Sequence record: OP114734.1
DNA from: Escherichia phage vB_ESM-pEJ01
Length of the DNA: 64,000 bases
Reading direction: 5' to 3' (one strand)
Shown: piece by piece, positions 4,744 to 53,828 of the stretch
Position numbering within the stretch: the stretch's first letter is position 1
How the letters are laid out: every line of letters starts with the position of its first letter
Made by a program: the position numbers and the translations under genes
Notes under the pieces: generated by a model
Told to the model about the DNA's origin: nothing
The model's input: only the letters and a program-made list of their open reading frames with translations
Database searches by the model: none

Positions 4744-4783
4744 TTGATTCTCCTTAAAGTGTATTTCGTTTCGATGGGGGGGT

Positions 4784-7634: not shown

Positions 7635-7663
7635 ATTATAGCGGGGATTTCTCCCCGCGTCAA
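7635..7663 (-). promoter_or_regulatory. sigma70-like promoter (TTGACG-17-TATAAT) with hairpin in spacer
   Basis: spacer is the hairpin GCGGGGAGAAATCCCCGC; immediately downstream of nrdA stop. Confidence 0.5.
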
Positions 7664-7671
7664 CACTTATT

Positions 7672-9915
7672 TTACAGCTTGCAAGATGAGCACTCGCTAG
7701 CGTCTTCCGTACCATCAGCACCATCACGCACGTTAGCGTAATACAGGGTTTTCAGACCGTAATATTGAGCAAACAACATATCATCTAACACATCAGCAAT
7801 ATCGACTTTACCAGTCTTATAAGTGCTTGGATCGTATGATGTATTGGAACTAATCGCCTGATCCACAAACTTCTGCATGATCGCTGCCAGTGTGAGATAA
7901 GGCTTGTTACCTTTCTTGATCAGTGTCCAAAGCAGGTCAATAACATCAGCATTATTCTCTACGTTCGGAATAACCTGATTAAATTGCCCTTCTTTCGATC
8001 CTTTAACCGATACAATCCCGCGAGGCGGTTCAATACCGTTTGTGCTGTTAGATACCTGAGAAGACGACTCACAAGGCATCAGCGCCGACAGTGTACTGTT
8101 ACGAATGCCATATTTTTTCAGGTCTTCGCGCAGTTCTTCCCAATCCATCTCATACACCGGATCAACCAGTTCATCTACTGTCTTTTTGTACCAGTCGATA
8201 GGAAGTTCACCGCGACCATAGCGTGTTTCGTGCATCAGTTCGCAAGCACCCTTCTCTTTAGCCAGTCGCACACTAGCCTTAATCAGAGCATATTGCAAGC
8301 GTTCAAACGTTTTATGCGTAAACTCGTTAGCGTCTTCATATGTGAAGAAATTATCTGCTAGATATGATGCAAAGTTAGTAACACCAATACCCAGAGAGCG
8401 ACGTTTTTTGGCTGTCAGAGCTTGTTCTACAGGATAATCCTGATAATCTAACAGGTTGTCAAGTGCACGCACCATAACCATAGCAATGCGTTCTACTTCT
8501 TCCATATTTTCGATATCGAAATTACCTAAAACATATGCTGCCAAAGTACATAGGCTGATCTCTGAATCATCACGCCCCATCGGTTTTGTTGGCAGCGCAA
8601 TTTCACAACACAGGTTAGATTGTTTAATCGGTGCTACATTACGAATAAACGCCCCGTGATTGTTCATGTTGTCTGTGAACGTTGGGTAGATTCGACCTGT
8701 GTTAAAACGTTCAATTGCCACCGCTAAAAACAGGTCTTCGGCTTTAACACGAGTTTTACGAACACTCGGATCTTTTTCCAGTTTTTCGTAAAGCTGGCGG
8801 AAACCTTCCTCATCTCGGAAGTATAGATCCCACAATAAGCCACCCGCAACATCTGGACTAAACAGAGTAATGTAATCCCGTTTAAGGAATCGCTCTACCA
8901 TCAGGTTATTAATCTGTACGCCGTAATCAAGATGACGAATGCGGTTATCTTCCACCCCCTTATTGTTCTTTAACACAATCAGACTTTCAAACTCTAAATG
9001 CCACATTGGGTAATAGAGAGTAGCTGCCCCGCCACGAATACCGCCTTGTGAGCATGACTTAACGGCAGTCTGAAAATGTTTCCAGAATGGGATAACGCCA
9101 GTATGACGAACTTCACCATGCCCGATCTTAGATCCTTCCGCGCGAATCATACCAGCATTGATACCGATACCAGCACGCTTGCTAATATACTTGATGATTG
9201 CATTTGCTGTTTCGTTGATGCCCTGCAATGAGTCATCACTTTCAATCACCACACACGAACTAAATTGGCGTGTTTGGGTACGCACACCTGCCATAATCGG
9301 AGTAGGCAGAGAGATTTGCTTATTCGCAACAGCATTATAAAAATCAATCACATGTTCAAGTCGATTTTCTGTCTCTTCTTGATGCAAGCACATACCGATC
9401 AGCATATACGCAAATTGCGGTGTTTCGATGATTTTCTTAGTGCTGCGATCCTGAACAAGATATTTCTCTTTTAACTGCATCGCACCAGCATAGGTCATTT
9501 TAAAATCAAGTTTATGGTCGATGAATTTCTCCAGATATTCCACTTCTTCACGGGAATATTTTTGCAGAATTTCGCGATCATATTTTCCGGTTGCAATATT
9601 ACGCTCAATATGGCTATAAAAATCAATAGGTTGGAATTGACCGTATACTGATTTACGAAGCGCGAACATTGCAAGGTTACTTGCTACATATTGATAATCA
9701 GGTGTTTCTACAGTAATGTTATCTGCGGCGACCTTAATCAATACTTTCTGGATATCATTGGTAGACATACCTTCTGTCAGAAGTGGTTCAACCATATCAA
9801 ACAATTCATATGGATCAACGTTATGACCTTCGGCTGCCGCTTCCAGAATTTTCATTACTTTTTCTTTTTCAAACGGAACAGTCAGACCGGAAGACTTAAC
9901 AACATTTTTAATCAT
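7672..9915 (-). CDS. nrdA: ribonucleotide reductase alpha subunit
   Basis: 747 aa; class I RNR large subunit with ATP-cone N-terminus; T4 NrdA-like length. Confidence 0.92.
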   Translation of the reverse strand: MIKNVVKSSGLTVPFEKEKVMKILEAAAEGHNVDPYELFDMVEPLLTEGMSTNDIQKVLIKVAADNITVETPDYQYVASNLAMFALRKSVYGQFQPIDFYSHIERNIATGKYDREILQKYSREEVEYLEKFIDHKLDFKMTYAGAMQLKEKYLVQDRSTKKIIETPQFAYMLIGMCLHQEETENRLEHVIDFYNAVANKQISLPTPIMAGVRTQTRQFSSCVVIESDDSLQGINETANAIIKYISKRAGIGINAGMIRAEGSKIGHGEVRHTGVIPFWKHFQTAVKSCSQGGIRGGAATLYYPMWHLEFESLIVLKNNKGVEDNRIRHLDYGVQINNLMVERFLKRDYITLFSPDVAGGLLWDLYFRDEEGFRQLYEKLEKDPSVRKTRVKAEDLFLAVAIERFNTGRIYPTFTDNMNNHGAFIRNVAPIKQSNLCCEIALPTKPMGRDDSEISLCTLAAYVLGNFDIENMEEVERIAMVMVRALDNLLDYQDYPVEQALTAKKRRSLGIGVTNFASYLADNFFTYEDANEFTHKTFERLQYALIKASVRLAKEKGACELMHETRYGRGELPIDWYKKTVDELVDPVYEMDWEELREDLKKYGIRNSTLSALMPCESSSQVSNSTNGIEPPRGIVSVKGSKEGQFNQVIPNVENNADVIDLLWTLIKKGNKPYLTLAAIMQKFVDQAISSNTSYDPSTYKTGKVDIADVLDDMLFAQYYGLKTLYYANVRDGADGTEDASECSSCKL

Positions 9916-11540: not shown

Positions 11541-12122
11541 TTACGCCTTCTTACGTTCTAAAATTTGTTCGCTGATCAGGTAATCATCAAGGAAGTAATT
11601 ATGTTCTTCTTTTGTTGCAAAGTCAAAATATAATTCCTGAATCATTTCCTTAGAGATGCCAACATCATATTCAAACAGATCATTAATTCCTGATCGTTGA
11701 ACATACGTTAACACAATACGGTCCGCAAAGTCAACTGCTTTTTCAATCAGGGAAGGTCCGCCAATAACGCTTACCAAACCTTGCAATTTCTCTATGACTT
11801 CTAATAATTCCTTCAATCCACCATCATTAGTAATCTCGGTATACACATCTGGTTGGTCGCCGTTTTTTGCTTTCGGTGCTGGCTTACTGGTATCGGTGCT
11901 AACAACCACATTCACACGACCTTCCAGTGCTTTAGGGAGACTTTCAAAGGTATTACGTCCCATTACAACCGCCGCAAGATCAACATCTCCCATAGTGCGC
12001 ATTTTAAAGTTTTCCATGTCCTTTTTGATTGGACGTCCCCACGGTAAACCGCCTTTAAAACCAAAAGCCCAATTTTCATCTGACATTTTAGTATCACCAA
12101 TCGCAAATACACATTGAATCAT
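11541..12122 (-). CDS. frd: dihydrofolate reductase
   Basis: 193 aa; DHFR fold motifs (...GLPWGRP...); upstream of td as in T4. Confidence 0.85.
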   Translation of the reverse strand: MIQCVFAIGDTKMSDENWAFGFKGGLPWGRPIKKDMENFKMRTMGDVDLAAVVMGRNTFESLPKALEGRVNVVVSTDTSKPAPKAKNGDQPDVYTEITNDGGLKELLEVIEKLQGLVSVIGGPSLIEKAVDFADRIVLTYVQRSGINDLFEYDVGISKEMIQELYFDFATKEEHNYFLDDYLISEQILERKKA

Positions 12123-12137
12123 AATATAAATCTCCCA

Positions 12138-12467
12138 TCAAATCAGTTTGAAATAGTTTTCGTTTACATTTTCTTCTGTGATTGCTGTCTTAAATTCTTG
12201 ACCGTTATCCGGTGTGATGAAATAACGGTCTGAATAATCACGAAAACGTTTTAAGTGAGATACCCCAACATTAACACCATGTTCCCAAAAACGAAAGGTA
12301 ATCATTTTTGGTTCATATCGATAGTCGCTGGTTAACACAGTACCATCACCGCGACGGGCTTCATAAACCGTAATACATTCACGATTAGCGGCTTTAAGGC
12401 ATTCTTCAATAGTGCCGCACGAGATAATACTTACTTTTTCATCTACGATTTGTTCTACAGTCCACAT
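12138..12467 (-). CDS. hypothetical protein
   Basis: 110 aa from MWTVEQ; promoter 12499..12527 and SD AGAGAGGA upstream; track ORF start at 12527 lies inside the promoter. Confidence 0.5.
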   Translation of the reverse strand: MWTVEQIVDEKVSIISCGTIEECLKAANRECITVYEARRGDGTVLTSDYRYEPKMITFRFWEHGVNVGVSHLKRFRDYSDRYFITPDNGQEFKTAITEENVNENYFKLI

Positions 12468-12498
12468 AATATAATCCTCTCTTTGTTTCGATATGTGC

Positions 12499-12527
12499 AT
12501 TATACTTTGATTCTTACAAACTTGCAA
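12499..12527 (-). promoter_or_regulatory. sigma70-like promoter (TTGCAA-17-TATAAT)
   Basis: canonical spacing; drives ORF 12138..12467. Confidence 0.5.
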
Positions 12528-12937
12528 CCTAATTCTTTTTCAATTTGTTTCTGGCGCTCTATGTCCTGAGTAATTTTGTATTTGTGTTCCGGTTCGTCGA
12601 TTTCATAAGCAACGTTATTAACCGGATCATAACCATCAATTCTATACCCCAATATAGGGTATTGTCGTTTTAATTTTATATTCAAAAGCTGTTCTATTGT
12701 GTCTAGTGCAATCTTTTCGGCAGCTGATAATCCAAAACGTATTCCAAAATATTGTTTCCTCACCGCTTCCGCAAGTTCTTCTGTTAAAATTATTTGCTTC
12801 TGTTTTCTACCATACACATCAAAATATTCACTATAATCATAACACAGACCTGTGTTTCTTGCAACCTTTTTTATGTCTCTAGTTACATGGGCATGACGTT
12901 TATTAAATTCTTTCGCAATATCCAGTGAGCTAATCAT
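12500..12937 (-). CDS. Rha-like regulatory protein with C-terminal nuclease-like segment
   Basis: 145 aa; N-terminus ISSLDIAKEFNKRHAHVTRDIKK resembles phage Rha family; C-terminus GYRIDGY...AYEIDEPEH acidic motif; occupies the T4 frd.1-frd.3 slot. Confidence 0.45.
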   Translation of the reverse strand: MISSLDIAKEFNKRHAHVTRDIKKVARNTGLCYDYSEYFDVYGRKQKQIILTEELAEAVRKQYFGIRFGLSAAEKIALDTIEQLLNIKLKRQYPILGYRIDGYDPVNNVAYEIDEPEHKYKITQDIERQKQIEKELGCKFVRIKV

Positions 12938-12964
12938 TTTATCCTCCGTTGCTTAGATGAGTGT

Positions 12965-12992
12965 ATTATACATTACCACATCATCATGTCAA
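12965..12992 (-). promoter_or_regulatory. sigma70-like promoter (TTGACA-16-TATAAT)
   Basis: upstream of ORF 12500..12937 with SD GGAGG. Confidence 0.45.
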
Positions 12993-13015
12993 CACCTTTT
13001 CATAAAATTTTAGGC

Positions 13016-13044
13016 AATAAAAAAGCCTCCCCTAAGGAAGGCTT
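13016..13044 (-). terminator. rho-independent terminator after gene 32
   Basis: GC-rich imperfect hairpin followed by T-run on the minus strand, just after the gp32 stop. Confidence 0.5.
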
Positions 13045-13053
13045 TAAAATTCA

Positions 13054-14028
13054 TTACATCCCTAACAGAGCGTCAAGATCATCCAGATCAGAAGCGGAGG
13101 AAGTACCGCCACCCAGGTCCAGAGATGCCATCAGGTCATCAGCGGAAGAACTCGACGCTGCGATAGCTGCGGTAGAAACAGACGCGGCGATAGCTGAGGT
13201 AGTGCCAGCATCGAATGCATTCATCTGTGCGTCAAAATCGTCAAGCTGGCTGTTAATCGCTGCCGCAGCACTGGAAGCCGCCGCACCAGCTACCATAGAA
13301 ACGCCCATAGTTTTCTTAAATTTGGTTTCCAGTTCATCGAACGGTTTAAACTGGCTAGGCGCTACAATCTCACCCAGATCAACCATGTTTTCCATCAGAT
13401 ATTTCTGATATGCTTCGTCTTCAATCTTCGGAAGCTGTGATTGCTGCATGAAACGAGAATCATCATAGTTCTGGTGTTTATCAACCTTCTTAGCTTTCAG
13501 GAGGAAGTTAGCACCGGAGAACACACAAGTTACATCTACAGGAACTTCGCCCATATCGGTATTCACGTTCACCATTGCAACGATCTTATCATAAATTTTC
13601 TGACCGAAGCGGAATTTGAATACATTACCTTCATTTTCTGGTGCTTGAGGATCTTTCAGTACCAGAATATTTGCGTAGTAAGAGGCTTTACGCTTAATCA
13701 GTTGCCATTCGGTTTTATCGGTATTGTACAGGTCTTTTTCGTTAATATATTTGCACACAGGGCAAGAATCAAAATCACCGTGGGTGCTTGAGCAGTTTTC
13801 CCAATACCATTTACCATTAACTTTGAAGGAATGGTTTACCAGTTTCACAATCGGCAGACCGTCTTCTGTCTTAGACGGCAGGAAGCGAATCAGGGCTTCA
13901 CCGTTACCTGCTGCATCAGTCTTAATCTTCCACTCTTTCGGATCTTCTTTGGAGAAACCGTTGCCACCTTTCAGTGCGGCCAGTTGAGCTTGCAGTTTGG
14001 AAGAATCTTGACGACGAAACATGTTCAT
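13054..14028 (-). CDS. 32: single-stranded DNA-binding protein gp32
   Basis: 324 aa; GNGEALIRFLPSK, WYWENCSSTHGDFDSCPVC zinc site and acidic Ala/Ser-rich C-tail match remembered T4 gp32. Confidence 0.93.
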   Translation of the reverse strand: MNMFRRQDSSKLQAQLAALKGGNGFSKEDPKEWKIKTDAAGNGEALIRFLPSKTEDGLPIVKLVNHSFKVNGKWYWENCSSTHGDFDSCPVCKYINEKDLYNTDKTEWQLIKRKASYYANILVLKDPQAPENEGNVFKFRFGQKIYDKIVAMVNVNTDMGEVPVDVTCVFSGANFLLKAKKVDKHQNYDDSRFMQQSQLPKIEDEAYQKYLMENMVDLGEIVAPSQFKPFDELETKFKKTMGVSMVAGAAASSAAAAINSQLDDFDAQMNAFDAGTTSAIAASVSTAAIAASSSSADDLMASLDLGGGTSSASDLDDLDALLGM

Positions 14029-14088
14029 AATTATACCTCTTTATACATTAACTATTGATTAATTTACGTTTTATACTATATCAGATAC

Positions 14089-14685
14089 TTAATTGCTTGT
14101 CAATACTTTATCAATTATATCTAACAGTTTTGGCTTTCTATTTTCAAATTCTAACATCTCTTCGGGAGAAATGTCAACTACTTCTGTTTTGTTGAAAAAG
14201 TTTGGGTCTATAGCATCAGCAACAAAGTTTCTCGCAAGTGCTGCCGCTTTCTCATGAACATATATTCCCAAATATATCAACTTCTTTCTTTCGACCTGAA
14301 TATTGGCAACATATTTACCATCTCGTTTATAAAGACTAACACCGATATATTCAGACGATCGACCTTTCTGTTTACCCATATTTCTTGAGTTTTGTTGCTC
14401 GTTCGCATCTCTCAAGTTTTCAATCCGATTATCTGTTATAATTCGGTTAACATGGTCAACGTATTTTGGCATGTATCCATGATGCATAAAGAAAATTATT
14501 CTATGCTCTTTATGATGTTTACCATCGATACACACCAATCTGTATCCATGACTAGGATTAACTCCACCCGCTCTAGATCCGACTTTATGCTTTCGGTTTG
14601 TCGATATCTTGCGAATCAGCTTACCGTTATCATATTTAAAGAGTTCATGACAACGAGCATACAATTCAGGATCATATGTTTTCAC
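14089..14685 (-). mobile_element. freestanding HNH homing endonuclease with AP2-like DNA-binding domain
   Basis: 198 aa; HNH core ...KEHRIIFFMHHGYMPKYVDHVNRIITDNRIENLRDANEQQNSRN followed by YIGVSLYKRDGKYVANIQV AP2-like module; inserted between genes 32 and 59. Confidence 0.8.
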
Positions 14686-15349
14686 CTTTTAACCTCGATA
14701 TTTCTTTACACTCTTTAACTACTTTAACAAATAATGCTCTTGCTTTTGCGGCGTCAATAACAAGTAGTTTCTTGTACGCCTTCATTTTAACACTATAAGT
14801 TTGCCAAATCAAGTCTTTGGCTACCTTGTCGTGTGCGTCGATTATATTTAGAAAGCTATCTAACAACATAAACGACTCAAACGATATAATCCGATTTTGC
14901 AGTAGTTTAAAGATACCGCTAGTTTCGGTTGCGGGATTGTATGTAATTAGCTCTTTAAGAGTAACCCCGCGTTTCTCTGAGAAGTATACCAGACTTTTAA
15001 TGTCATCGTCAAATCGTGTTGCTGCATCGGTTATCTTTCCTATGTATTCCATATAAAAGCCGTATGCGTCAACATCAGTGATTTCACCTACCCATGCATC
15101 GGTATTAGCTACCAGATTGCTTAGGAATAGGAAGTATAATTCTCTTAGATTGTACTTTTCCGCTAATTTTGCGAAATAATACTTATCTCTGCGTTTATTG
15201 AATGCGGCATCAGACAACCGCATCCTCCAATTGTATTTTACGCAATCATAACGCCCGTTCATGTGAGCTTTCATCATGCAATATAACATATACACAGATT
15301 TAGCATTAATTCGCATATCTGGATCTGGAGGAAGACGGTTTCTGATCAT
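14672..15349 (-). CDS. 59: helicase loader gp59
   Basis: 225 aa; KSVYMLYCMMKAHMNGRYDCVKYNW and LVANTDAWVGEI match remembered T4 gp59. Confidence 0.88.
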   Translation of the reverse strand: MIRNRLPPDPDMRINAKSVYMLYCMMKAHMNGRYDCVKYNWRMRLSDAAFNKRRDKYYFAKLAEKYNLRELYFLFLSNLVANTDAWVGEITDVDAYGFYMEYIGKITDAATRFDDDIKSLVYFSEKRGVTLKELITYNPATETSGIFKLLQNRIISFESFMLLDSFLNIIDAHDKVAKDLIWQTYSVKMKAYKKLLVIDAAKARALFVKVVKECKEISRLKGENI

Positions 15350-15358
15350 ACATACCCC

Positions 15359-15628
15359 TTAAATATCGAGAGTGTTTGTCGGTTCGTCGATCACTCCCTT
15401 CCTGAGCGTTCTATTTACTATACATTCTTGTGTGATCTTGTCAATAATGGACACCGGAATATATTTCTGATAGTGACCATATTCGATAGAGTTTTCCTCT
15501 ACAAACTGCGTTGTCGCTTCAAGATAAGTCAATCCATCTTCAACAACCAGTTTTTCGATTGCAAGACCGTTTGCTGTTTTGTTCGCGGCTTTTACCGCAT
15601 GTTCATTAAGCATTGAACACCCGATCAT
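15359..15628 (-). CDS. 33: late transcription co-activator gp33
   Basis: 89 aa; ...TYLEATTQFVEENSI... resembles remembered T4 gp33; position between 59 and dsbA. Confidence 0.55.
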   Translation of the reverse strand: MIGCSMLNEHAVKAANKTANGLAIEKLVVEDGLTYLEATTQFVEENSIEYGHYQKYIPVSIIDKITQECIVNRTLRKGVIDEPTNTLDI

Positions 15629-15881
15629 AGAGTTCTACCGCTTCATCGCGTTCTGCTTCGAAGGTTTCGCGCTGTTGCTGGTGATACAGTTTAAACAGAA
15701 TACCCCACATTTTACCGTCTACGCCCAATTCTTCTTTAGCACGCTGTTTGATCTCTTTGATCTTATCGCCGTATGCTTCTTGAATGGTTTTCTGATCGCT
15801 GGCTTCTTTAATCAGTTGTGCCAGGGTATTTCCGTGCACTGCTTCGTCAAATACTACTTTTTCTTTTTTCTGTTCAGTCAT
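15606..15881 (-). CDS. dsbA: dsDNA-binding protein DsbA
   Basis: 91 aa; FDEAVHG...LIKEASD...ELGVDGKM resembles remembered T4 DsbA; position upstream of rnh. Confidence 0.65.
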   Translation of the reverse strand: MTEQKKEKVVFDEAVHGNTLAQLIKEASDQKTIQEAYGDKIKEIKQRAKEELGVDGKMWGILFKLYHQQQRETFEAERDEAVELYDRVFNA

Positions 15882-15885
15882 AATA

Positions 15886-16482
15886 TTAACCCTCTTTCGT
15901 CATTAATTGAAAACCACGTTCAGCTTTTGAAATTTCGCTAGGACTTAAATCGTCACCCACATATTCTAGCATCATTTCTCGGATAATGTCAAGTGCTTTT
16001 TCATCACCTGATTTTAACTCGAACTTAAGTTCATAGTGAGCATCTCCCATGACTTCGCCGACTTTGCAATAATAGAAAGTGTCTTTGCACATTTCCACTA
16101 TAGCACCCTCAAGGTCAAGTGTCAATGACTTGCGGTATGTCATTACTTGCAATAAAGGAACGATAAGGTCGGAGTTTACGCCTAGACTATCAACATAGTG
16201 ATAGAAATCATCCATTGTTGAAAAAGTAATTTCTTCTCGGTTGAATAGTCCAGATTCACCATCACCTATTTTGACCATGATCAATGATCTATTAACGTCA
16301 AGTCGAGCATAAATTCCTTTTCGACGCAGTGCATGATCTTCGGTATCATAATAAAATTCGTGTTTTAGTGTGTTAGCATGATCTACGATATTGTACCCGT
16401 CATACATTGCTACCCACAAATCACAGATTGTTTCGACGCCAATTTGTGAGTGTGCATAGTATTTTAATTCAAGTTCTTTCAT
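15886..16482 (-). CDS. CYTH-like (triphosphate tunnel metalloenzyme) protein
   Basis: 198 aa; N-terminal ELELK (ExExK), YYDTEDHALRRKGIYARL, HYELKFELK acidic/basic motifs typical of the CYTH fold; no T4 counterpart at this junction. Confidence 0.45.
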   Translation of the reverse strand: MKELELKYYAHSQIGVETICDLWVAMYDGYNIVDHANTLKHEFYYDTEDHALRRKGIYARLDVNRSLIMVKIGDGESGLFNREEITFSTMDDFYHYVDSLGVNSDLIVPLLQVMTYRKSLTLDLEGAIVEMCKDTFYYCKVGEVMGDAHYELKFELKSGDEKALDIIREMMLEYVGDDLSPSEISKAERGFQLMTKEG

Positions 16483-16492
16483 ATGTCAACCC

Positions 16493-17440
16493 TTAGAACT
16501 CACCAATTTTCTGCAACATTTTAACTAACGCATTTGTTACAAAATAGTTATAAATTTTACCGCGTGGTGCTGGTTTAGATTTTTCCCATGACTCCAGAAT
16601 CTGATTCTGAATATCATCTGGGATGTAATCGAAATCAATAAGTTCGCGGTTTTCGTCAAAGCGTCGTGCTTCTTCCTCTGTCATCAAAGACTTTGGATCT
16701 TCGGCATCGAAAATTTGCTCTAACCATTTGGTCGCAATTGGTTTAGCTCGTTCCCCTTCCAGTCGTGAGATAATGAAATCACTACGGCACTTGACAGAAG
16801 CTACACCGTCTTTTGCGTCACCCTTAACACATTTTACCATAAGGTCTTTGTAAGGGCTACCATATTTGCATTTCTTCCATGCTTTCTGTACTGGCGCCCA
16901 CTGTTTCACGTTTTTGTATTTGTGCAACTGTGTGTAGTCACCATCGCCGGAGTTGATCAGCACCTGACGACCTTCTACAGAAAACTTTTTAGTTAACACA
17001 GCGATTATATCATCTGCCTCAACTTTGTCAACCTTAATAACGTGATAAGGCATGTTCTCTTTAAACTCTTCGGTGATCTTATTGATCGCGGCAAAGATCA
17101 TCTCCCAATCACGCGGATCTGCGTCTCGTTTTTCCTTACGGTTGCGTTTATAGTAAGGGGCGATATCACGTCGCCAGTAACCTTTACTTGAATCAAAAGC
17201 AAGTACCGTAATTGGGTATTGTTCTTTGAATTTTGTCATATTATAACGCATGGTGTCAAGGATAAGATGACGGATCATGCCTTCATTAATAGGATCTTCC
17301 GGTTTAAAGGTATGCGAGATAGTAGCAATCATAAGCTGCGACATATCAATCAAATGCACACCTTCCGGTAGTTTATCTTCTGGATCATCGAAGAAATCAT
17401 TAAGTGTAGCGGTAGTTTTTGTAAACGGGTTATACGTCAT
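16493..17440 (-). CDS. rnh: RNase H (FEN-like 5'-3' exonuclease)
   Basis: 315 aa; colinear with remembered T4 RNase H (GYWRRD, YKKNR, HLILD, KGDKKDNVASVK-like, RGKIYNYF...EF end). Confidence 0.9.
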   Translation of the reverse strand: MTYNPFTKTTATLNDFFDDPEDKLPEGVHLIDMSQLMIATISHTFKPEDPINEGMIRHLILDTMRYNMTKFKEQYPITVLAFDSSKGYWRRDIAPYYKRNRKEKRDADPRDWEMIFAAINKITEEFKENMPYHVIKVDKVEADDIIAVLTKKFSVEGRQVLINSGDGDYTQLHKYKNVKQWAPVQKAWKKCKYGSPYKDLMVKCVKGDAKDGVASVKCRSDFIISRLEGERAKPIATKWLEQIFDAEDPKSLMTEEEARRFDENRELIDFDYIPDDIQNQILESWEKSKPAPRGKIYNYFVTNALVKMLQKIGEF

Positions 17441-17442
17441 AA

Positions 17443-17628
17443 TTAAGTTCTCTCCACTCTCACAACAACATATTCGCCAAACGAGTTAGATACTTCACGA
17501 TCATACCCGTACTTCTCCATAACTCGCAGAATTGCATTGTTTAGTTCTGCGCGAAAATAATTATAATCCTTATCAGGGATTCTGTCAACTACCCATTTTG
17601 CACCATCAGACAAATCAAATTTAACCAT
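17443..17628 (-). CDS. hypothetical small protein
   Basis: 61 aa track ORF directly upstream of rnh in the same orientation. Confidence 0.35.
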   Translation of the reverse strand: MVKFDLSDGAKWVVDRIPDKDYNYFRAELNNAILRVMEKYGYDREVSNSFGEYVVVRVERT

Positions 17629-17634
17629 AATATA

Positions 17635-18216
17635 TCATCCTCTTTTTGGAAAATTTAAATAAGCATACTCGCCAACTATTTCATGTGCTGCACGGTCATA
17701 AGCCTTAGCCGCCTCAACTTCTGTCTCAAAGTATCCTAGATGTATATTCTTTCGATTGATAACAATATACGCCTTCCACGGCTTTTTCTTGCTTGGTGAT
17801 AATGATACACCTTTATATTTGCTATGGCAAGCCTTTTTCTTTGAGACGTTAAACTGATTTTGCTGTTCGGTTGCTTCTCTCATGTTTGACGGTCTATTGT
17901 TAGTTTTGTCTTGGTCTATGTGATCTATTCGTTCAACCTGAGTACCATACTCTAAAAACCAGACAACTCTATGTACAAACAGATTAAGTTTATGACCATT
18001 GTTGTAAAATGTAAAGTATAAATATCCTTCTTTATGGAGACATACCCTTACCACATCACCTTTTTTGTATATGGACCCTTCTTTTCGGAATCCAGCAGCT
18101 ACAGAATCCTTTAAATGGTATAATATTCCATCGACATGATAGAATCTACCTTTTATCGCTTTCTGTGTCTCGATATCCCAAAATTTTGTTTTTGCCACAA
18201 CAAACACCTCACACAA
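17635..18216 (-). mobile_element. freestanding HNH-AP2 homing endonuclease
   Basis: 193 aa; VVWFLEYGTQVERIDHIDQDKTNNRPSNMREATEQQN HNH core plus YKGVSLSP...WKAYI AP2-like domain; paralog of 39976..40539. Confidence 0.8.
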
Positions 18217-18222
18217 TAAATA
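18215..18222 (+). promoter_or_regulatory. T4 late-promoter-like element (AATAAATA)
   Basis: 7/8 match to TATAAATA, ~30 nt upstream of gene 34 start. Confidence 0.35.
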
Positions 18223-18250
18223 ATTTCATATTATAACAGGAGACCCAATA

Positions 18251-21200
18251 ATGGCAGATTTTTCTCAACATTTCAAGGCCACCTTTGGCTTTGACGCTGG
18301 TAATGAAAAGGTCGTCAATGTAGCATACGCAGATAAAAACACATCAACGGATGCGGTCAACGTTGAATTTTTCAATTACCATAATGGTATTACTCAGTAT
18401 GACACAACTCGCGGTTATGATCAATACGGAACTACAATCTATCAAAACCGTCCGTATTATGCAAAAGAAGATATCACAAAGCCAGCAGGTGATTTTGACC
18501 CGACTAAATGGCAAGCACTGCGCACGGACCCACGTTGGGATTATGTTGCAGCAACTTCCGGCGATACTCCTTTAAAGTCTGGTGATTATATCGCAGCGGA
18601 CTGTCAGTTTGCAAACTTGACATTCTCAATGCCTACTAATCCGGCAGAGGGAGACACTATAACAGTAAAAGATATCGGTGGCAAGTGTGGTGTTAACGAA
18701 TTATCGTTCTTGAGTACAGGACATGAGTTTTACCATAACGGTAATGTGTACAACCGAAAATGGTATTGCACTACCCCGTATGCAATGAACTATTTCATCT
18801 TTGTTCGTAATCGTTGGCATGTTTATCAGACAGGAACAGAGCCACGCGGTGTGTACGCACAGCCAGCGATTGATGCTATTCAAATGCAGAATGGTGATCA
18901 GGTATTTCGTCGTAGTTCGTTGGGTAATATTACCTTAGTGCTTCCTAAGTTTGCCAACAATGGCGACATGATCCAGACTACAGACCTTGACGGATTAACC
19001 GCAACCAACCACGTTACGGTTAAAGTTCATGAGCACGCAGAAGAACAATCAATTGGCACGTCCGGTCTAAAAGAGATTATCGGTAAGCGTAGCGGTCATG
19101 GTGTATTCATCTTTGACAAGACGGAAAACTTATGGCGTTTGTGGGATGGTGATCAGTCTGTTCGTCTTAAACCGATCATCGATGACACTCGCTTGCAACC
19201 TAATAGCTATGTTGCTGTATTTGGTGATCGTGATGTTACTCTGACGCTGCCGACCAATGTCGAGCCGGGTGATCGTATTCAAGTTTCTATGCAGTATATG
19301 AACGGAAACCAGAATTGCCGTATTATCACCGCCACAGAGGATACAAAAATCCTTATGCAGAAAAACATGGTTCAGTTTCCTAAGCGTAGCGAGTACCCAT
19401 TCAATGGGACCGATACATGGACGGGAGTATCTGAATTGTCTTTCAACGCTGCAAATGATTATGTACCTTATGTGGAGTTCTCTTATTCAGAAGGTGATGA
19501 TGGTAAGAAATACTGGTTGGTGGCACATGCTCACCCGATTGTAGAACGAGTAGATCCGACTCGTAAAGATCGTGTTGGTGTAATTGCACTGGCTACCCAA
19601 ACTGAAACGAATAAAAACCATGAAGAGAATCCTAGCGACGAAGTTGCAGTAACACCAAAAATGCTGGCTAATAAAACCGCCAACGAAACTCGACGCGGTA
19701 TTGCTCGCATTGCGACTCAAGCGGAAACGCATCAAGATACTGGTTCCAACTTCCTGGATGATGTTATCGTTACGCCTAAAAAGTTAAATGACTGTGTTGC
19801 TACCGAAGCCCGTCGTGGTGTGATGGAAATTGCAACCCAGCACGAAACCAATGAAGGTTTAGACGATACCCGCGCTATTACTCCTAAGAAATTAGAAGAA
19901 CGTCGCGCTTCCGAAGATCTCGCTGGTATTGCTGAAATTGTTCAGGCTGGCGGCAGTGCTGCCGCTCGACGTGGCGAAGCTGGTACAGGGATCTATAACA
20001 TCAATGACCATGCTAAAATTGTTACGCCAAAAAACATCAACGAAGTCAAGGCGACCGAAACTTCCCGTGGTGTTGGCTATCTGGCAACTGACGCGGAAGT
20101 GCAAGGGGCTACAGAATCAACCCCGCAAGATGCTTTACTCATCACGACTCGCACGCTAACGAAACGTACTGCTACCGAATCGCGCACTGGTATCGCTGAA
20201 ATTGCAACTCAGGAAGAAACAAACTTAGGTCAAAGTGATAACCATATCATCACGCCTAAAAAGCTGCATACTCGCCGAGCAACGGAAACTTTACACGGTT
20301 TAGCAGAAATTGCAACTCAACCGGAGTTTGACGCAGGTCGTGACGATTCTCGCATTTCTACCCCATTGAAGATTAAAACCTTCTTTGAGAATGCACAGCG
20401 TTTGAAAGTAGATCCGACTCAGGGGCTTAACCTTACTGGTGATTTGTGGCAAGGTATCATGATCAGCGGTCTGGATGCAACCGAAGACACAAAAGGTGTC
20501 GCTAAAGTTGCGACTACTCAGCTTACTGACGCTGGTCAAGATGATACTACAATCATCACGCCTAAAAAGCTGCAAGGCAAGAAGGCCACCGAAGGTAAAG
20601 AAGGCATTATCCGAGTTGGTACTCAAGCCGAAACCGTGGCTGGTATTATGGACAATGTAGCAATTTCTCCGAAGAACTTCAAATATGTTGTTCAGACAGA
20701 GGATACATGGAAAGCAACCGAAGCGCGTCGTGGCTTCTTGAAAGTTGCTACTCAGGAAAACTGTTTTGTTGGTGATAATCTGCAAGGTTCTACTCAAGAA
20801 CTAGGAAACTACCAGCATGACGGAATTGCTGTTACCCCTAAAGGATTAAACTACGCACTTGCTAATTTCTTACCTAAGATGGCAACCGCTCAGAATAGTT
20901 TGAAATTAGGTAACGTAGAGGCCGCTAAATGGGCGCGTAGAGACATTGACCAGACCATAGAGAGCAATTACACGTTTAATAAAAACGTTAACGTGAAGGG
21001 CGATTTAGAGTGCTTAAAATCAGGTTCCTTTGAAACTCTGTCTGTGACTAAGAACTCGACCGATGTTCCGAGTAATGGTCATCTGGTGTTGGGTGAGCGT
21101 GGAGTTGACGGTCACACCGGAATTACTCTGCATGGCACAACCGCATCGGAAGGCATGAAAAACTCTTGGTCTATTATCGTTGGTGGTACTGGAACAGCGC

Positions 21201-31759: not shown

Positions 31760-31761
31760 AA

Positions 31762-39617: not shown

Positions 39618-39953
39618 TTAATCTTTTTTCAGTGCATCCATTACTCGCTCTGCGATCAGTTCTCGTAAGCACTGATAACCATGATATTTGATGGCAATGT
39701 CACGCAGATCATTAACCAGTTCCCGTACTTCATGGTCTTTCAGATCGTCTCTGTATTTCGATTTAACCGTGTCTTTAGGTGGATTGTGGATAACCTGAAA
39801 ACCTTGTTCTGCAATCACTGCGGCTTCGCGCTGGCGTTCATGTTGTACTGTATTTTTGATCAGGTCTGCTTCCATGAACTTTGCCATACTCATCATCATG
39901 TTATTCTTTTTGCTCATTATTAAATCCTCATAAAAGAAAAGGGAGACTCCCAT
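39618..39953 (-). CDS. hypothetical protein
   Basis: 111 aa track ORF; likely starts at the internal MSKKNN. Confidence 0.4.
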   Translation of the reverse strand: MGVSLFFYEDLIMSKKNNMMMSMAKFMEADLIKNTVQHERQREAAVIAEQGFQVIHNPPKDTVKSKYRDDLKDHEVRELVNDLRDIAIKYHGYQCLRELIAERVMDALKKD

Positions 39954-39975
39954 TATAGAGAATCTCCCTTGTATG

Positions 39976-40539
39976 TCAACTAAAATTTAAAGATGCAAAC
40001 TCCCCGTGATGAATTTTTGCATATTCATCATATGCTCTAGCGGCTTCCTCCTGAGTAGCAAACGATCCTATGTATTTTCTGTATCCGTTTATCCTTATTT
40101 GTGCTTGCCACGGTCTTTTGCTAGATCCTTTGCGATGAGTAACACCATTATATATGCTCGTGCACCCGTCCATTTTCTTTTTATTGTACATGTTTTGTTG
40201 TTGTGTTGCCTCCCGTAAATTTGGTGGATTGTTGTTTTCTGGATTCCCGTCTATGTGGTCTATTACCTTAACCTGTGTTCCATATTCAAGAAACCAGACA
40301 ATTCTATGTACAAGATATGTAGATGTTCTCTTTTTAACCTTATTGTAAACATCTATTGCCAAATGACCGTAATTTAACTTTTTTGTTTTTACTTTATCAC
40401 CGACTCGGTAGAAATATCCCTCTGGTAGACCATTAAAAGACGGACTATTTGTTTTGTGATATAGAACACCTTCCGTGTGTTCAAATCTGCGTTTTAATTC
40501 CTCTTGAATTTCAGTATTCCAAAATTTCGCACTTTTCAT
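39976..40539 (-). mobile_element. freestanding HNH-AP2 homing endonuclease
   Basis: 187 aa; IVWFLEYGTQVKVIDHIDGNPENNNPPNLREATQQQN plus AP2-like YNGVTHR...WQAQIRINGY; ATG 1 nt after the gene 39 stop. Confidence 0.8.
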
Positions 40540-40540
40540 A

Positions 40541-42364
40541 TTATGACGCCATCCATGCCTTCCTCATGTCTGAATCTTCGCTATAGAGCAAATCGAATAG
40601 CTCTTTATAGTTTTCCGGTAACGTGATGATCTCCATGACAGGATCGTTGATCACGCGATGATAGTCTGATTCTGTGAGCGATGCTAAACCTTTGATATAT
40701 CGAATGTTGTAACCTTTGATATTATCTCGGTCGTTCTCGAAATCTTCTAGGTCATAATACCATCGAACATCATCACCTTTCTTTGGTTCAGCAATGATAA
40801 TAGGTGTTTTGATAAACCGGATTCGTCCATCTTCGAACAATTCAGGCCAACGTGCAAAGAAAGAGATCAGACTAGGTTTAATAGACCCGATCCCGTCGGT
40901 ATCAGCGTCTGTCATAATCGCAATATTTTTGTATTGCATAACTTCCAATGCATCAACACCAAATTGCAAGCCAGTGATCGCCATGATGTTAAAAATTTCG
41001 GCGTTATTAACGATCTTTGCCTCCGGTTGTTCCCACGTTGTAAGAGTTTTGCCTCGCAACGGGAAACCTCCATGTAAATCTTGATCGCGTACAGAGATCA
41101 GATAGTTGATCGCGGAATCACCTTCCGTCAAAAACAGGGTAGTTTCTGCGTCAGTTCCAATAAGGTTAGCTTTAACGTGTTTTGCCACCTTAGCCCGTTT
41201 CGCTGCCTTTGCTGCCTTAGTCGCTGCCGCTTTATCTGCTGCCTCTTTGCGTGCCAAGACTACAGCAATAATAGGCATGATAATGTTTTCTTTCTTCGCA
41301 ATGACTTTAGCCAGCTTTTTAAAATCAAGATCAATATGACGCTTGATATCACCAGTCGGGTTAGTCAAGCGTTCTTTTGTCTGTGAATCAAAACGAAGGT
41401 TAGGCAATTCACGAACAATAAGAATACAGGTCAATCCAGATTTAACCGCAGCTTTAGTAACATCAACCTTATATTCTTTCTTGATTCGTTTTACAATCTC
41501 TTCACAAAGATCATCTGTCACATAATCAACGTGTGTTCCCCCGTTTTTGGTAAACAGACCGTTAGCAAAGGATACTGATTTAAAACCTTCTCCCTCGACC
41601 GCCGGAACTAGGGCAAGTGAAAAGTTTTTATCTTCAATGACAAACGGATCATCATTGTATAGTTTAGCATAATCCTTGAACTTACTAACAATACGTTTAC
41701 CATTAAACTTAAACGTGATCTTAGGAAATATTACGCTCAATGATTGCAGACGATCATGAACAATATCTAAAACAGAGTTGTCCATCATATAACCTTCGAA
41801 GTGGTCGAAGTCTGGACAAAATGTAACCTTCGTTCCCTTCAATTTTGATGGTTTTGATGACCATGTGACATTTTCAGCACCGTTTGTGCATTGAACGGTC
41901 ATTTCTGTTTCGCCGTCACAGGTCACACCAGTAAACCAATCGCTAAAGAAATTTGATAACGACGACCCAACACCGTTCATCCCTTGCGTTAATCGATTGG
42001 TATCATCAAAGTTAGACCCTGCTTTTGTTCGTGTCCATGCGGCTACAGGTTGCGGAATCTGCGTACCCTCTGGGGTAGTAACCATATGTTGAGGAATACC
42101 GCGACCATTGTCTGTTACCGTAACAATATTGTTTTGGATATCGACGCTAATCACATTGGCAAATTCAAAGTTAGTGCGGATCGCCTCGTCTACAGAGTTG
42201 TCGATGATCTCATCAATGATTTTAACCAGTCCAGGAACGTATGAAATTTTTGTCCATTTACCGAACAGGAAACGTTGATGTTCTTCGTAAGTTGTTGATC
42301 CTATATACATTCCTGCACGCTTAAGGACATGTTCACGATCAGATAAAATGCGAAACTCACTCAT
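40541..42364 (-). CDS. 39: DNA topoisomerase II large (ATPase) subunit gp39, unsplit
   Basis: 607 aa; GyrB-like GHKL ATPase and TOPRIM motifs; one continuous ORF covering the region that T4 splits into genes 39 and 60. Confidence 0.88.
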   Translation of the reverse strand: MSEFRILSDREHVLKRAGMYIGSTTYEEHQRFLFGKWTKISYVPGLVKIIDEIIDNSVDEAIRTNFEFANVISVDIQNNIVTVTDNGRGIPQHMVTTPEGTQIPQPVAAWTRTKAGSNFDDTNRLTQGMNGVGSSLSNFFSDWFTGVTCDGETEMTVQCTNGAENVTWSSKPSKLKGTKVTFCPDFDHFEGYMMDNSVLDIVHDRLQSLSVIFPKITFKFNGKRIVSKFKDYAKLYNDDPFVIEDKNFSLALVPAVEGEGFKSVSFANGLFTKNGGTHVDYVTDDLCEEIVKRIKKEYKVDVTKAAVKSGLTCILIVRELPNLRFDSQTKERLTNPTGDIKRHIDLDFKKLAKVIAKKENIIMPIIAVVLARKEAADKAAATKAAKAAKRAKVAKHVKANLIGTDAETTLFLTEGDSAINYLISVRDQDLHGGFPLRGKTLTTWEQPEAKIVNNAEIFNIMAITGLQFGVDALEVMQYKNIAIMTDADTDGIGSIKPSLISFFARWPELFEDGRIRFIKTPIIIAEPKKGDDVRWYYDLEDFENDRDNIKGYNIRYIKGLASLTESDYHRVINDPVMEIITLPENYKELFDLLYSEDSDMRKAWMAS

Positions 42365-51915: not shown

Positions 51916-51956
51916 AATATAATCCTCTCAGTCAAAATATCATTTTACTACTTTAA

Positions 51957-52733
51957 TTATTCTATGTCAACAAATTTCCAATTTGGAAAGTCTGGACTCA
52001 TACAACGACGCCGAACGGTTCCGCGCTCGTTTCCTAGTACCTTAGATACTTCCGATACAGATTTATAAATCACACCATCAACAAATACAGCCTTTCGGTC
52101 TTTCCTGTTTTGGTTTTTGCTCTTTTCTCTTCTGGCTTCTACGTTATCCGAATCATTCCATTGTCTCTTTGCTGTCTCTCTGGAAGATATTGCCTTTTGT
52201 TCTTTAACAATATCTTTAACGAGTTGTTCTTGTCCTGTTATCTTCGCCCACACATTAACAGACTGGATAGCATTAGCCTCACTCATTCCCCAGCGTTTGC
52301 CGGATATATTCTTACGACGCACGCGTAGAAATTCGTTAAAGACTTCTTCGCATTGGTGCATATAATCACGAAATCCATATTTCTTAGCCCATGCCTCTTT
52401 AATTGCATCAGACATATTTTCGGCAATACGTCTACGCATCCATGCATACTCCTTATTATTGCGACCGTGACTGGTCATGCACATCATACGCGAAGCCATA
52501 ATAAGACCCACATGTTTAGGATACATTTTAGCTAAAAGTAGATGTGCTGTAAAGTGTTCCTCTGGAGTCAATGGAACGAGATTTTCGTGGTCATCGGTTC
52601 CACCCATACAACGTGGTTTAACGTGATGGATCTCTACATATCCGGTCGGCTTCTCGCGGGTTCTTGCTCGTTCAATCAATTTTTTGTAATGTGCTTTGTA
52701 GTTCATGTGATCCTCCATATGAAAAAGGGGCAT
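51957..52733 (-). mobile_element. freestanding HNH homing endonuclease (basic C-terminal DNA-binding region)
   Basis: 258 aa; HNH core GYVEIHHVKPRCMGGTDDHENLVPLTPEEH; lysine/arginine-rich C-terminal half; inserted between uvsX and gene 40/41. Confidence 0.75.
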
Positions 52734-52757
52734 AACGCCCCTTAACTGTCACTGATA

Positions 52758-53828
52758 TTATGCTAACATATCTTCGATTTCTTTGTCAACTGCTTCGTCG
52801 CTGATAATCTGGCCTAACTGATAATGATCGTTGATTGCTTTCTGGAAGTGCTCATTGGTCAGTAGAGGTTTCCAGAACTCCACACTGTCAGTGTCTTTTG
52901 CACGCACCTTGCGGTCTTCAACTTCCATTTCTCCGGTCTCCTCGTTAAGAATAGCGCGAGAATACCAGCCATTTGATGGTTTAACTACCCAACCCAACTC
53001 CACCGCAAGATCCAGCAATCCAGAATAAGGATCGATGCCACCACTAAACGTTACGCTAATCGGGAACTTTGATCCCTCTCTAACCGTTCGTGATTTCTCG
53101 GCTTTCAGAATAAAGTCATAACCCGTAACCTCGGTTCCTTCTTTCTGCTGGCGACGCCCAATGATGAAAATTTCATTGGAAGAGTAAACGCCACCAGTAC
53201 CGCCACCCATGATATCTTTCGGGTAAAGATCCATTGAGCTATAAACGTGGTTAATCGCAATGCACGGAATATCATTCATGGTCAGATACGGCGTAATCAT
53301 ACGGAACAAGCCTTTAAGTGCTTTAGCTCTCGTCATATCCTGTGCCGATTTCTCATTAATCGCGTCTTCAACTTCTTTTTTACTTGCCAAGTTACCGATT
53401 GAGTCAATAAAGATGATCACTTTATCTTCACGGGTAATTTGCTCAAGCTGGTTCATGATCTCAAATTTAAGTTCTTCGATGTTCTTGATTGGAACGTGCA
53501 CCACTCGATCAGGATCTACACCCATAGATGACAGATACGCGGAAGTAATGCCAAATTCTGAATCAAAGAACAAACAAGCCGCATCTGGATTCTGTTTCAT
53601 GTATGCACTAACACAAGTTAATCCCATGTTTGATTTAAAGTGCTTAGACGGACCAGCAAAGAAAATCAGACCAGATTGAAAGCCTTTTTTAAGATCACCA
53701 GAAAACGCAATATTCAGCATCGGGATCTTAGTGCGAGTATTTGTTTTTTCGTTAAAGAAGCTGGATTTAGACAGTACCGCAGTAGTTTTCAGGGTAGAGT
53801 TCTTTTTCAGTTTTTCCAGTACAGACAT
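52758..53828 (-). CDS. uvsX: UvsX recombinase (RecA-like)
   Basis: 356 aa; colinear with remembered T4 UvsX (GPSKHFKSNMGLT, FFDSEFGIT, IDSIGNLASKKE, CIAINH). Confidence 0.9.
   Translation of the reverse strand: MSVLEKLKKNSTLKTTAVLSKSSFFNEKTNTRTKIPMLNIAFSGDLKKGFQSGLIFFAGPSKHFKSNMGLTCVSAYMKQNPDAACLFFDSEFGITSAYLSSMGVDPDRVVHVPIKNIEELKFEIMNQLEQITREDKVIIFIDSIGNLASKKEVEDAINEKSAQDMTRAKALKGLFRMITPYLTMNDIPCIAINHVYSSMDLYPKDIMGGGTGGVYSSNEIFIIGRRQQKEGTEVTGYDFILKAEKSRTVREGSKFPISVTFSGGIDPYSGLLDLAVELGWVVKPSNGWYSRAILNEETGEMEVEDRKVRAKDTDSVEFWKPLLTNEHFQKAINDHYQLGQIISDEAVDKEIEDMLA

Follow-up and report, generated by a model that had tools for sequence, protein, structure and literature searches.

A class of HNH-AP2 endonuclease genes in T4-related phages was reportedly defined by Magnani et al. 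2004 and Wuitschick et al. 2004. Its members, which include ORF040c of RB49, two genes in JSE and genes in RB43 and RB16, are freestanding and encode an I-HmuI-like HNH_3 nuclease domain together with an AP2 domain. Nolan 2006 reported AP2-HNH genes for RB49 and RB43, and a review with a table of HNH genes of these and other kinds for each T4-related genome lists one HNH-AP2 gene and one mob-like gene for RB49, and two HNH-AP2 and two mob-like genes for JSE (Petrov 2010). In the literature, we found neither a mapped target nor a demonstrated cleavage for the HNH-AP2 class. In T4, segG is annotated in the slot between gene 59 and gene 32, segA beside uvsX, and a mobA relic after gene 39; the targets given for segG, segA and mobA are gene 32, uvsX and gene 39, respectively (PMC2988022). 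The same review, by Edgell, Gibb and Belfort, describes overlapping or coupled start and stop codons, embedded promoters of downstream genes and upstream terminators as traits of the T4 seg and mob genes (PMC2988022). Its example is segG with the gene 32 promoters, and embedded promoters are held to favour retention of the endonuclease gene.

Here, we describe four intact endonuclease ORFs, all on the minus strand, in a window of 64,000 nucleotides, i.e., the whole stretch of DNA analysed, from Escherichia phage vB_ESM-pEJ01 (OP114734.1). The window is a segment of a Krischvirus genome (RB49-like, T4-type). Three of the ORFs encode HNH_3+AP2 proteins (HEG1, HEG2 and HEG3), which belong to the same group as the RB49 and JSE genes, and one encodes a T4 Mob-like HNH protein (HEG4). 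We consider it highly likely, judging from the comparisons below, that HEG1 to HEG4 are freestanding genes for homing endonucleases, drawn from two HNH lineages already known, and that they spread by intronless homing.

Relatives were collected by megablast of window positions 12000-19000 and 30000-36000 against 50,697 phage records, which returned 58 to 63 records each. The 58 records common to both segments are all from RB49-like coliphages and Shigella phages of the genus Krischvirus, with 93 to 98% identity, and no identical copy of the window is among them. Boundaries were compared over ∼46 kb from ten relatives using blastn and MAFFT junction alignments. The gene order is that of T4-type replication and recombination regions, with td, frd, 32, 59, 33, dsbA, rnh and 34-37, and, further on, rIIB, rIIA, 39, dexA, dda, 61, 41, 40, uvsX and 43. 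A first-pass annotation had claimed that four HNH ORFs interrupt this T4-like order, and all four were found, on the minus strand, at the places that it gave; in RB49 and other relatives that lack the inserts, the 59-32, rnh/orf247-34, 39-downstream and uvsX-40 junctions are contiguous. Genes 59, 32, 34, 39, uvsX and 40 (the last being the gene between HEG4 and gene 41) are all intact, and HEG1 to HEG4 are intergenic ORFs of their own. Because an Rfam search of the window yielded no family above threshold, and thus no group I intron, we reject an intron-encoded status, and the earlier description of the genes as freestanding is upheld. Neither an HMM of 49 HNH-AP2 homologues nor a phmmer search with HEG4 detected further HNH-AP2 or Mob-like copies among the 412 six-frame ORFs of the window. 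A role as terminase-associated HNH proteins was also rejected: the four genes lie far from the packaging genes, and T4-type phages package their DNA by a headful mechanism. The features are listed in Table 1.

Table 1. Positions of the four endonuclease genes, their insert blocks and associated elements in the window
Feature	Position	Strand	Details
HEG1 gene, predicted HNH_3 + AP2	14089..14685	-	198 aa, GTG start; between gene 59 and gene 32
HEG1 insert block	14028..14696	-	stands for ∼83 bp of HEG-less genomes (blastn/MAFFT junction alignments)
Sigma-70-type promoter TTGACA-17-TATAGT	14075..14103	-	within last HEG1 codons, facing gene 32
HEG2 gene, predicted HNH_3 + AP2	17635..18198	-	187 aa; between gene 34 and an RB49p247-like 61-aa ORF
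HEG2 insert block	17647..18226	-	580 bp in place of 32 bp (junction alignments)
T4-type late promoter motif TATAAATA, perfect match, putative function	18017..18024	+	antisense inside HEG2, 234 nt upstream of gene 34
HEG3 gene, predicted HNH_3 + AP2	39976..40539	-	187 aa; paralog of HEG2
HEG3 insert block	39980..40568	-	includes recoded gene 39 3' end (junction alignments)
PeSL-like cassette at HEG3 3' boundary	39939..39979	-	TTGACA-16-TATAAT (12/12) within 13-bp stem-loop
HEG4 gene, predicted T4 Mob-like HNH	51957..52706	-	249 aa; between uvsX and gene 40
HEG4 insert block	51930..52716	-	787 bp in place of 3 bp, nearly clean insertion (junction alignments)
Sigma-70-type promoter TTGACA-17-TAAAAT	51942..51970	-	in last HEG4 codons, facing genes 40/41
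Terminator-like hairpin	52725..52743	-	8-bp stem and T run, after uvsX, directly upstream of HEG4 Shine-Dalgarno
Co-conversion-like tract, 3' part of uvsX	52758..53260	-	76-82% to HEG4-less relatives; both outer flanks ∼99%
Recoded UvsX L2 loop, aa 195-208	53205..53246	-	NHVYSSMDLYPKDIM in window vs canonical NHTYETQEMFSKTVM in RB49-type phages and T4

The coordinates first proposed for HEG1 and HEG3 are retained, while two start codons are corrected. HEG2, previously begun at 18216, where there is an in-frame TTG, most likely starts at the GTG at 18198, which is preceded by a GAGG Shine-Dalgarno sequence and is the start annotated in ELT4 and FL15. Similarly, HEG4, previously begun at 52733, to which the ORF is open, most likely starts at the ATG at 52706 with a GGAGGA Shine-Dalgarno sequence, as annotated in KFS-EC, JEP8 and Sf20.

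The description of three ORFs as HNH+AP2 genes stands for the nuclease domain in all of them, and for the AP2 domain at Pfam thresholds in HEG2 alone. HNH_3 (PF13392) is matched by HEG1, HEG2 and HEG3 with 43.6, 47.3 and 51.8 bits, respectively, against a gathering score of 24.8; for AP2 (PF00847; gathering score 33.3), HEG2 reaches 34.0, and HEG1 (23.4; E = 7e-5) and HEG3 (25.7; E = 1e-5) fall below but are still significant. All three match PHROG 99, "HNH endonuclease" (E = 1e-46 to 1e-50). A profile of the three proteins matches I-HmuI, a solved HNH homing endonuclease (E = 2e-7), with the Asp-His, Asn and Asn of the HNH core aligned and conserved, and HEG2 by itself matches plant AP2 structures (E = 3e-8) and I-HmuI (E = 4e-4). 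The predicted model of HEG1 also resembles AP2 domains and I-HmuI, and the AP2 fold, a three-stranded sheet plus a helix, is like that of solved AP2/ERF domains. In an alignment of 49 sequences (the three proteins and 46 database homologues), no substitution occurs at D77, H78, N86 or N90 (HEG1 numbering) and almost none at N99, and these core residues align with the DH..N..N motif of I-HmuI. For HEG1 to HEG3, we predict an I-HmuI-like HNH_3 nuclease joined to an AP2 domain for DNA binding. They differ in this respect from I-HmuI itself (PDB 1U3E), the nicking HNH enzyme of Bacillus phage SPO1, which is intron-encoded and carries a C-terminal helix-turn-helix. HEG2 and HEG3 were rightly called paralogs, being 46% identical over their full length (E = 6e-48); HEG1 is 29 to 32% identical to either.

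The fourth ORF had been described as an HNH gene with a basic C-terminal region; it has an HH..N..H motif, a basic linker and, after the linker, a predicted I-TevI-type DNA-binding domain. HEG4 matches PHROG 655, "homing endonuclease" (E = 3e-49), and over its N-terminal 106 aa it shares 52% identity with T4 MobB (E = 3e-26). The Pfam HNH score (PF01844) is 18.8 bits, under the gathering score of 21.4, and the sequence EIHHV..GG..D..NL..L..EEH aligns residue by residue with the HNH motif of McrA. The match to the C-terminal I-TevI-type domain is marginal (27.6 bits at residues 206-254 of the 258-aa ORF; cutoff 27.0). HEG4 is predicted to combine a T4 Mob-like HNH nuclease with an I-TevI-type DNA-binding domain at its C-terminus. 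Like MobB and MobE of T4, it is a freestanding HNH gene, and an intrinsic terminator lies upstream as for mobE; it differs from them in its insertion site (uvsX/40), in its C-terminus (an I-TevI-type helix-turn-helix) and in its presumed target, uvsX and not nrdB. Mutated catalytic residues had been named as an observation that would speak against mobile elements, and we find these residues conserved in comparison with I-HmuI for HEG1 to HEG3 and with McrA for HEG4.

The junction alignments define the empty sites of all four genes to the base. In the compared RB49 sequence (OZ035808), these sites are 4682-4764 for HEG1, 7716-7747 for HEG2, 30447-30477 for HEG3 and, at the uvsX-40 junction, 41662-41664 for HEG4. 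In the HEG1 block, the last codons of gene 59 are recoded from TCAA to GAGG at 14693-14696, and therefore a Shine-Dalgarno sequence for HEG1 was created; the GTG start and gene 59 overlap by 14 nt. At its 3' end, the block contains a diverged gene 32 leader and first codons. The HEG3 ATG lies 1 nt past the gene 39 stop (TAA-T-ATG), and all HEG3 carriers have a different allele of the last ∼ten gene 39 codons, ending in EDSDMRKAWMAS before the stop as compared to EDADSTQNWMQS in non-carriers. HEG3 follows an unsplit gene 39 (the 39+60 form, 607 aa), for which reason we reject the possibility that it occupies the T4 mobA site that splits gene 39/60. At gene 59, gene 32 and gene 39, the junction allele changes with the presence of the respective endonuclease gene. 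The HEG4 block is bounded by an imperfect 8-9-bp repeat (TGGAGGAT / TGAGAGGAT). At the remaining junction, the HEG2 stop codon overlaps the Shine-Dalgarno sequence of the following RB49p247-like ORF, and in HEG2 carriers the ancestral TATAAATA at -36 of gene 34 has become AATAAATA (18215-18222). We infer that HEG2 displaces the late promoter of gene 34 and that a candidate replacement is located within HEG2. On the coding strand, no T4 late promoter (TATAAATA, as in I-TevI-type regulation) was found upstream of any of the four genes; the sole nearby match is the antisense one inside HEG2.

HEG1, HEG3 and HEG4 each end in a sigma-70-type promoter, the -35 hexamer of which overlaps the last codons or the stop. 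The promoter in HEG1 is the counterpart of the annotated early promoter of gene 32 in RB49. The one in HEG4 is missing from HEG4-less genomes and, because it is inside the insert, arrived with it. In HEG3, the TGA stop falls within the -35 hexamer, and since this consensus promoter sits in a stem-loop, the element counts as a PeSL (Arbiol et al., PMC2839356). The arrangement predicted for HEG1 to HEG4 matches that of the T4 seg and mob genes. By supplying or keeping the promoter of a downstream essential gene, such a cassette would limit polarity, and its deletion would be disfavoured. The likeness is closest for segG, which shares with HEG1 the 59/32 slot (T4 annotation), the embedded gene 32 promoters and the expression from an upstream transcript; the two nucleases are nevertheless unrelated, SegG being a GIY-YIG enzyme, and SegG cuts at a distance, within gene 32 of T2, whereas our alignments suggest that the HEG1 target is at the 59/32 junction itself.

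These signals also bear on whether the four genes still move. They might be relics or domesticated nucleases, kept for their downstream signals or for marker exclusion of competitors without spread of their own. The promoters of gene 32 and genes 40/41 in HEG1 and HEG4 and the candidate late promoter of gene 34 in HEG2 are what such retention would lead one to expect, embedded promoters are proposed to favour it (PMC2988022), and T4 mobA is a defective relic of this kind. All four ORFs are, however, intact with conserved catalytic residues, and near-identical copies are spread over diverged genomes in combinations that are not nested, a pattern that cannot arise without recent horizontal movement. 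In addition, damage to competitors and homing are one biochemical act, so that this explanation, which we regard as improbable, differs from homing in emphasis more than in mechanism.

Several lines of evidence from the 58 Krischvirus records support the view, already expressed in the first-pass annotation, that the four genes were recently mobile. First, each is polymorphic at a fixed site. HEG1, HEG2, HEG3 and HEG4 are present in 11, 8, 8 and 4 records, respectively, in combinations that are sporadic and non-nested, and all four occur together in none of the 58. HEG1 and HEG2 occupy sites that are empty in RB49, phi1 and JSE. Second, the copies are far more similar than the DNA around them. 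With PHB13 and LF73P4 excluded, HEG1 to HEG3 copies differ from those of the window at 0 to 2 of ∼570-600 positions (0-0.35%), and the flanks (±2.5 kb) of the same carriers are 2.1 to 5.4% diverged (one-sided Fisher p from 2e-4 to 3e-11, for carriers that are phylogenetically non-independent). The contrast is weaker for HEG3 of LF73P4 (5/564 differences; p = 0.03), marginal for HEG4 of KFS-EC (1/750 differences versus 0.67% in the flanks; p = 0.049) and not significant for HEG2 of PHB13 (10/564 differences). Since the same sequences sit in otherwise diverged genomes in a non-nested pattern, recent horizontal movement is required; the near-identity of the copies would speak for recent spread and not for present activity. 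Third, dN/dS is 0.10 to 0.135 for the diverged alleles, i.e., HEG4 in JEP8 and Sf20 and HEG1 in 011D4, and we conclude from these values that the proteins have been under purifying selection.

The individual records fit into this picture as follows. Nine of the 11 HEG1 copies are 98.7 to 100% identical to that of the window and two (E26 and 011D4) are 84% identical; the 011D4 allele is mosaic, its first ∼115 nt being identical to the window and the remainder ∼80%, with a shared junction. HEG2 is 99.7 to 100% identical in G37-3, FL15, PTE-Eco09, KFS-EC and ELT4, and the PHB13 copy is frameshifted with 17 internal stops, which fits the decay stage of the invasion-decay (homing) cycle. HEG3 is 99.1 to 100% identical in W115, FL15, G37-3, G5211, kvi, JSE and LF73P4, and is the JSE HNH-AP2 gene itself (99.3% nucleotide identity). 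The four HEG4 records represent three phages, and only KFS-EC (99.9%), Sf20 (95.5%) and JEP8 (93.8%) carry the gene.

Transfer between genomes does not by itself call for a nuclease. Alternatively, a PeSL cassette or ordinary homologous recombination between co-infecting Krischviruses could have moved the ORFs with the nuclease uninvolved. PeSL-mediated excision and insertion of ORFs has been described in RB49 and phi1 (PMC2839356), the 3' boundary of HEG3 is exactly at the PeSL-like promoter and stem-loop, and sigma-70-type promoters end HEG1 and HEG4. Moreover, the genus is highly mosaic in the rest of the window, too, and because HEG1 to HEG3 lack long co-conversion tracts, ordinary recombination could also explain their transfer. 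PeSL shuffling, however, needs two flanking PeSLs, and each of the four genes has at most one; the 5' boundaries fall outside any PeSL, namely within the final codons of gene 59 or gene 39 or beside a late promoter. Neither process explains why, of the approximately nine indels that separate the window from RB49 in the compared stretch, four encode intact, selected nucleases, nor does it account for a one-sided tract in uvsX that ends at a conserved motif (see below). We therefore hold this explanation to be unlikely and favour homing.

The uvsX tract is the most distinctive of the comparative signatures. On the gene 40/41 side of HEG4, every relative is ∼98-99% identical to the window. On the uvsX side, identity to relatives without HEG4 is only 76-82% between the junction and ∼53260 and is again 99% beyond. 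This ∼550-bp tract is linked to HEG4: KFS-EC is 99.9% identical to the window throughout, and JEP8 and Sf20, whose HEG4 is 94-95% identical, have a third uvsX allele in which the tract ends at the same position. Divergence within the tract peaks at 53200-53250 (28/50 mismatches), in the block encoding the L2 loop of UvsX. The window and KFS-EC encode NHVYSSMDLYPKDIM there, JEP8 and Sf20 encode NHTYSEMSLYPKEIM, and RB49-type phages have NHTYETQEMFSKTVM, which is identical to T4; the DNA of this canonical stretch is largely conserved from RB49 to T4. Among 1434 phage records matching an L2-region query in tblastn, a non-canonical L2 was found only in HEG4 carriers, and all other Krischvirus records are canonical; the carriers and their L2 alleles perhaps amount to about two lineages. 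KFS-EC apart, the nearest relative of the tract in the 50,697 phage records has 86% nucleotide identity, and for this reason the donor lineage appears to be unsampled. In PHB13 and phiS, which lack HEG4 and keep the canonical L2, the 3' end of uvsX is diverged as well, so that uvsX mosaicism can also arise without HEG4.

The tract may be read as obligate co-conversion between a distant cleavage site and HEG4. [quoted passage not shown] 2003, cited in PMC2988022, and T4 Mob resembles HEG4 in that co-conversion appears to run from a distant site in a conserved neighbour gene. SegA of T4, a GIY-YIG enzyme of an unrelated nuclease family encoded on the opposite side of uvsX, has uvsX as an apparent target in common with HEG4. 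Because everything between the L2 block and the insertion point is replaced in carriers, the HEG4 target is probably ∼500 bp away in uvsX, near or in the L2-coding block, and this block would be the best candidate for the target or immunity determinant. It is possible, if rather doubtful, that HEG4 recognises the L2-coding DNA and spreads only together with a radically recoded L2 (NHVYSSMDLYPKDIM or NHTYSEMSLYPKEIM for NHTYETQEMFSKTVM). For HEG1 to HEG3, only the codons directly adjoining the inserts differ between carriers and non-carriers, which is why we place their targets probably at or beside the insertion points.

Altogether, we favour a model in which the four genes would be expressed as passengers on existing early transcripts, as the sequence arrangement suggests. 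HEG1 would be translated by means of the gene 59 overlap and the Shine-Dalgarno sequence made within gene 59, HEG2 from its own GAGG Shine-Dalgarno sequence, and HEG3 by restart 1 nt past the gene 39 stop; for HEG4, transcription would have to read through the uvsX terminator. When a relative lacking the gene infects the same cell, the DNA-binding module would recognise the conserved empty allele and the HNH domain would nick or cut it. I-HmuI-type enzymes are nickases, and a double-strand break by HEG1 to HEG3 is consequently not guaranteed. Recombination repair by the phage would subsequently copy the endonuclease gene and adjoining markers from the carrier genome, as the comparative signatures suggest. 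Carrier genomes, in which the site is split or recoded, would thereby be immune.

These genes are already known, both as a type and as sequences, and belong to a well-described class. Homologues of HEG1 and HEG4 are present in ∼2,500 and ∼1,050 phage records, respectively, and all four genes already bear the annotation "homing endonuclease" or "HNH endonuclease" in GenBank, in several records. Because the HNH-AP2 and mob-like genes of RB49 and JSE were tabulated in 2006-2010 and identical genes are annotated in GenBank, novelty is low. Three points that we did not find described in the literature are the base-level empty sites, the perfect linkage of HEG4 to a recoded L2 and the late promoter of gene 34 that HEG2 is proposed to displace; they are modest additions and not a new system.

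In the window, the life cycle of homing endonucleases in a T4-type genus can be seen cleanly in a natural setting, with what appear to be four independent invasions at junctions by 59/32, 34, 39 and uvsX; in T4, these slots or genes host unrelated nucleases. Empty sites are now given to the base for all four enzymes, the AP2-HNH class included, and the L2-coding DNA of uvsX is a predicted target of a Mob-like enzyme. If the proposed relation between HEG4 and L2 is true, a selfish gene would drive allele replacement of a functional loop in the recombinase needed for its own homing, and the carriers would hold natural UvsX L2 variants with possibly altered recombination behaviour. More generally, the alleles of uvsX, gene 39 and gene 59 in this genus appear to be shaped in part by linked selfish elements, which matters for the use of these genes as phylogenetic markers.

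Insertion of HEG2, the HNH_3+AP2 endonuclease gene between gene 34 and a 61-aa open reading frame (ORF), appears to have altered the late transcription signals of gene 34. In genomes without HEG2, a perfect late promoter motif, TATAAATA, lies 36 nt upstream of gene 34. The replacement of this motif by AATAAATA in HEG2 carriers, together with the presence of TATAAATA inside HEG2 itself, suggests that the late promoter ahead of gene 34 was displaced when the HEG2 cassette came in. Perfect copies of TATAAATA are found only twice in the 64-kb window, one inside HEG2 and the other at 23326, amid late tail-fibre genes and on the same strand as the HEG2-internal copy. Perhaps, judging from the motif and its placement, the copy inside HEG2 serves as a replacement for the displaced promoter.

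Features in the window and in loci from relatives (L012, PHB13; L016, 011D4)
Feature	Coordinates	Strand	Remarks
AATAAATA in place of TATAAATA	window 18215-18222	+	HEG2 carriers
Perfect TATAAATA, antisense within HEG2	window 18017-18024	+	HEG2 carriers; 234 nt upstream of gene 34
Gene 43 (DNA polymerase), uninterrupted	window 54090-56798	-	split site in relatives ~55570
HEG2 copy in PHB13	L012 about 7175-7760		97.8% identity to window copy
Second HEG1 allele	L016 1201-1794		011D4 and E26; site unchanged
Presence/absence block, ~500 bp	window 43359-43860		between dexA and dda
101-aa ORF	window 43309-43614	-	mostly within the dexA-dda block
145-aa ORF	window 12500-12937	-	Rha-type and DUF559/Vsr-like (Pfam)

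The endonuclease genes themselves vary among relatives. The HEG2 copy of PHB13 is a decaying one, because a 1-nt insertion gives rise to 17 internal stops; the copy of FL20 is likewise 97.8% identical to that of the window. HEG1, the HNH_3+AP2 gene between genes 59 and 32, has a second allele in 011D4 and E26. The junction with gene 59 and the opening ~115 nt of this allele match the window exactly, the rest is about 80% identical, and gene 32 has the leader type of HEG-less genomes. This patchwork, together with the leader, indicates that recombination occurred within HEG1. PHB13 and phiS lack HEG4, the Mob-like HNH gene next to uvsX, yet carry a fourth uvsX 3' allele, which is 89% identical to the RB49 type and keeps the canonical L2 loop. 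This allele could stem from loss of the endonuclease gene or from recombination independent of HEG4.

Other insertions are found at sites where the window has none. In JEP8, MIZ4 and PHB13, an ORF of 729-834 nt, in one case annotated "endonuclease VII," lies between genes 39 and 39.2 (junction near window 42365). In these phages, identity to the window falls to 70-84% in the adjacent 5' part of gene 39 (window 41600-42310), against 97-100% in the remainder. The 5' part of gene 39 is a second co-conversion-like tract, tied to a different inserted gene, one that the window is without. Similarly, gene 43 is split in ELT4, kvi, MIZ4 and JEP8 by a ~1.1-kb insertion containing an 825-nt HNH ORF; gene 43 of the window is uninterrupted and, therefore, offers an empty site for this element. 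A putative intron with a truncated homing endonuclease gene has been mentioned for gene 43 of JSE (Petrov 2010).

The block between dexA and dda is another small presence/absence cassette in the window; it is missing in RB49 and KFS-EC and found in ELT4, LF73P4 and FL15, and the kvi alignment is unbroken across it.

Finally, the hypervariable slot immediately downstream of gene 32 houses the 145-aa ORF, which combines an N-terminal Rha-type DNA-binding region (E = 3e-8) with a C-terminal DUF559/Vsr-like nuclease (E = 5e-5). Its DNA had no match in a search of 50,697 phage records, and no T4-like homologue of the protein was found; the closest protein is from lambdoid phage mEp044 (50% identity), followed by Vibrio phages. 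Other Krischviruses have unrelated ORFs of 330-1626 nt in this slot, several annotated as endonucleases. The 145-aa ORF may be a fifth nuclease-type mobile gene, missing from the four listed in the first-pass annotation.
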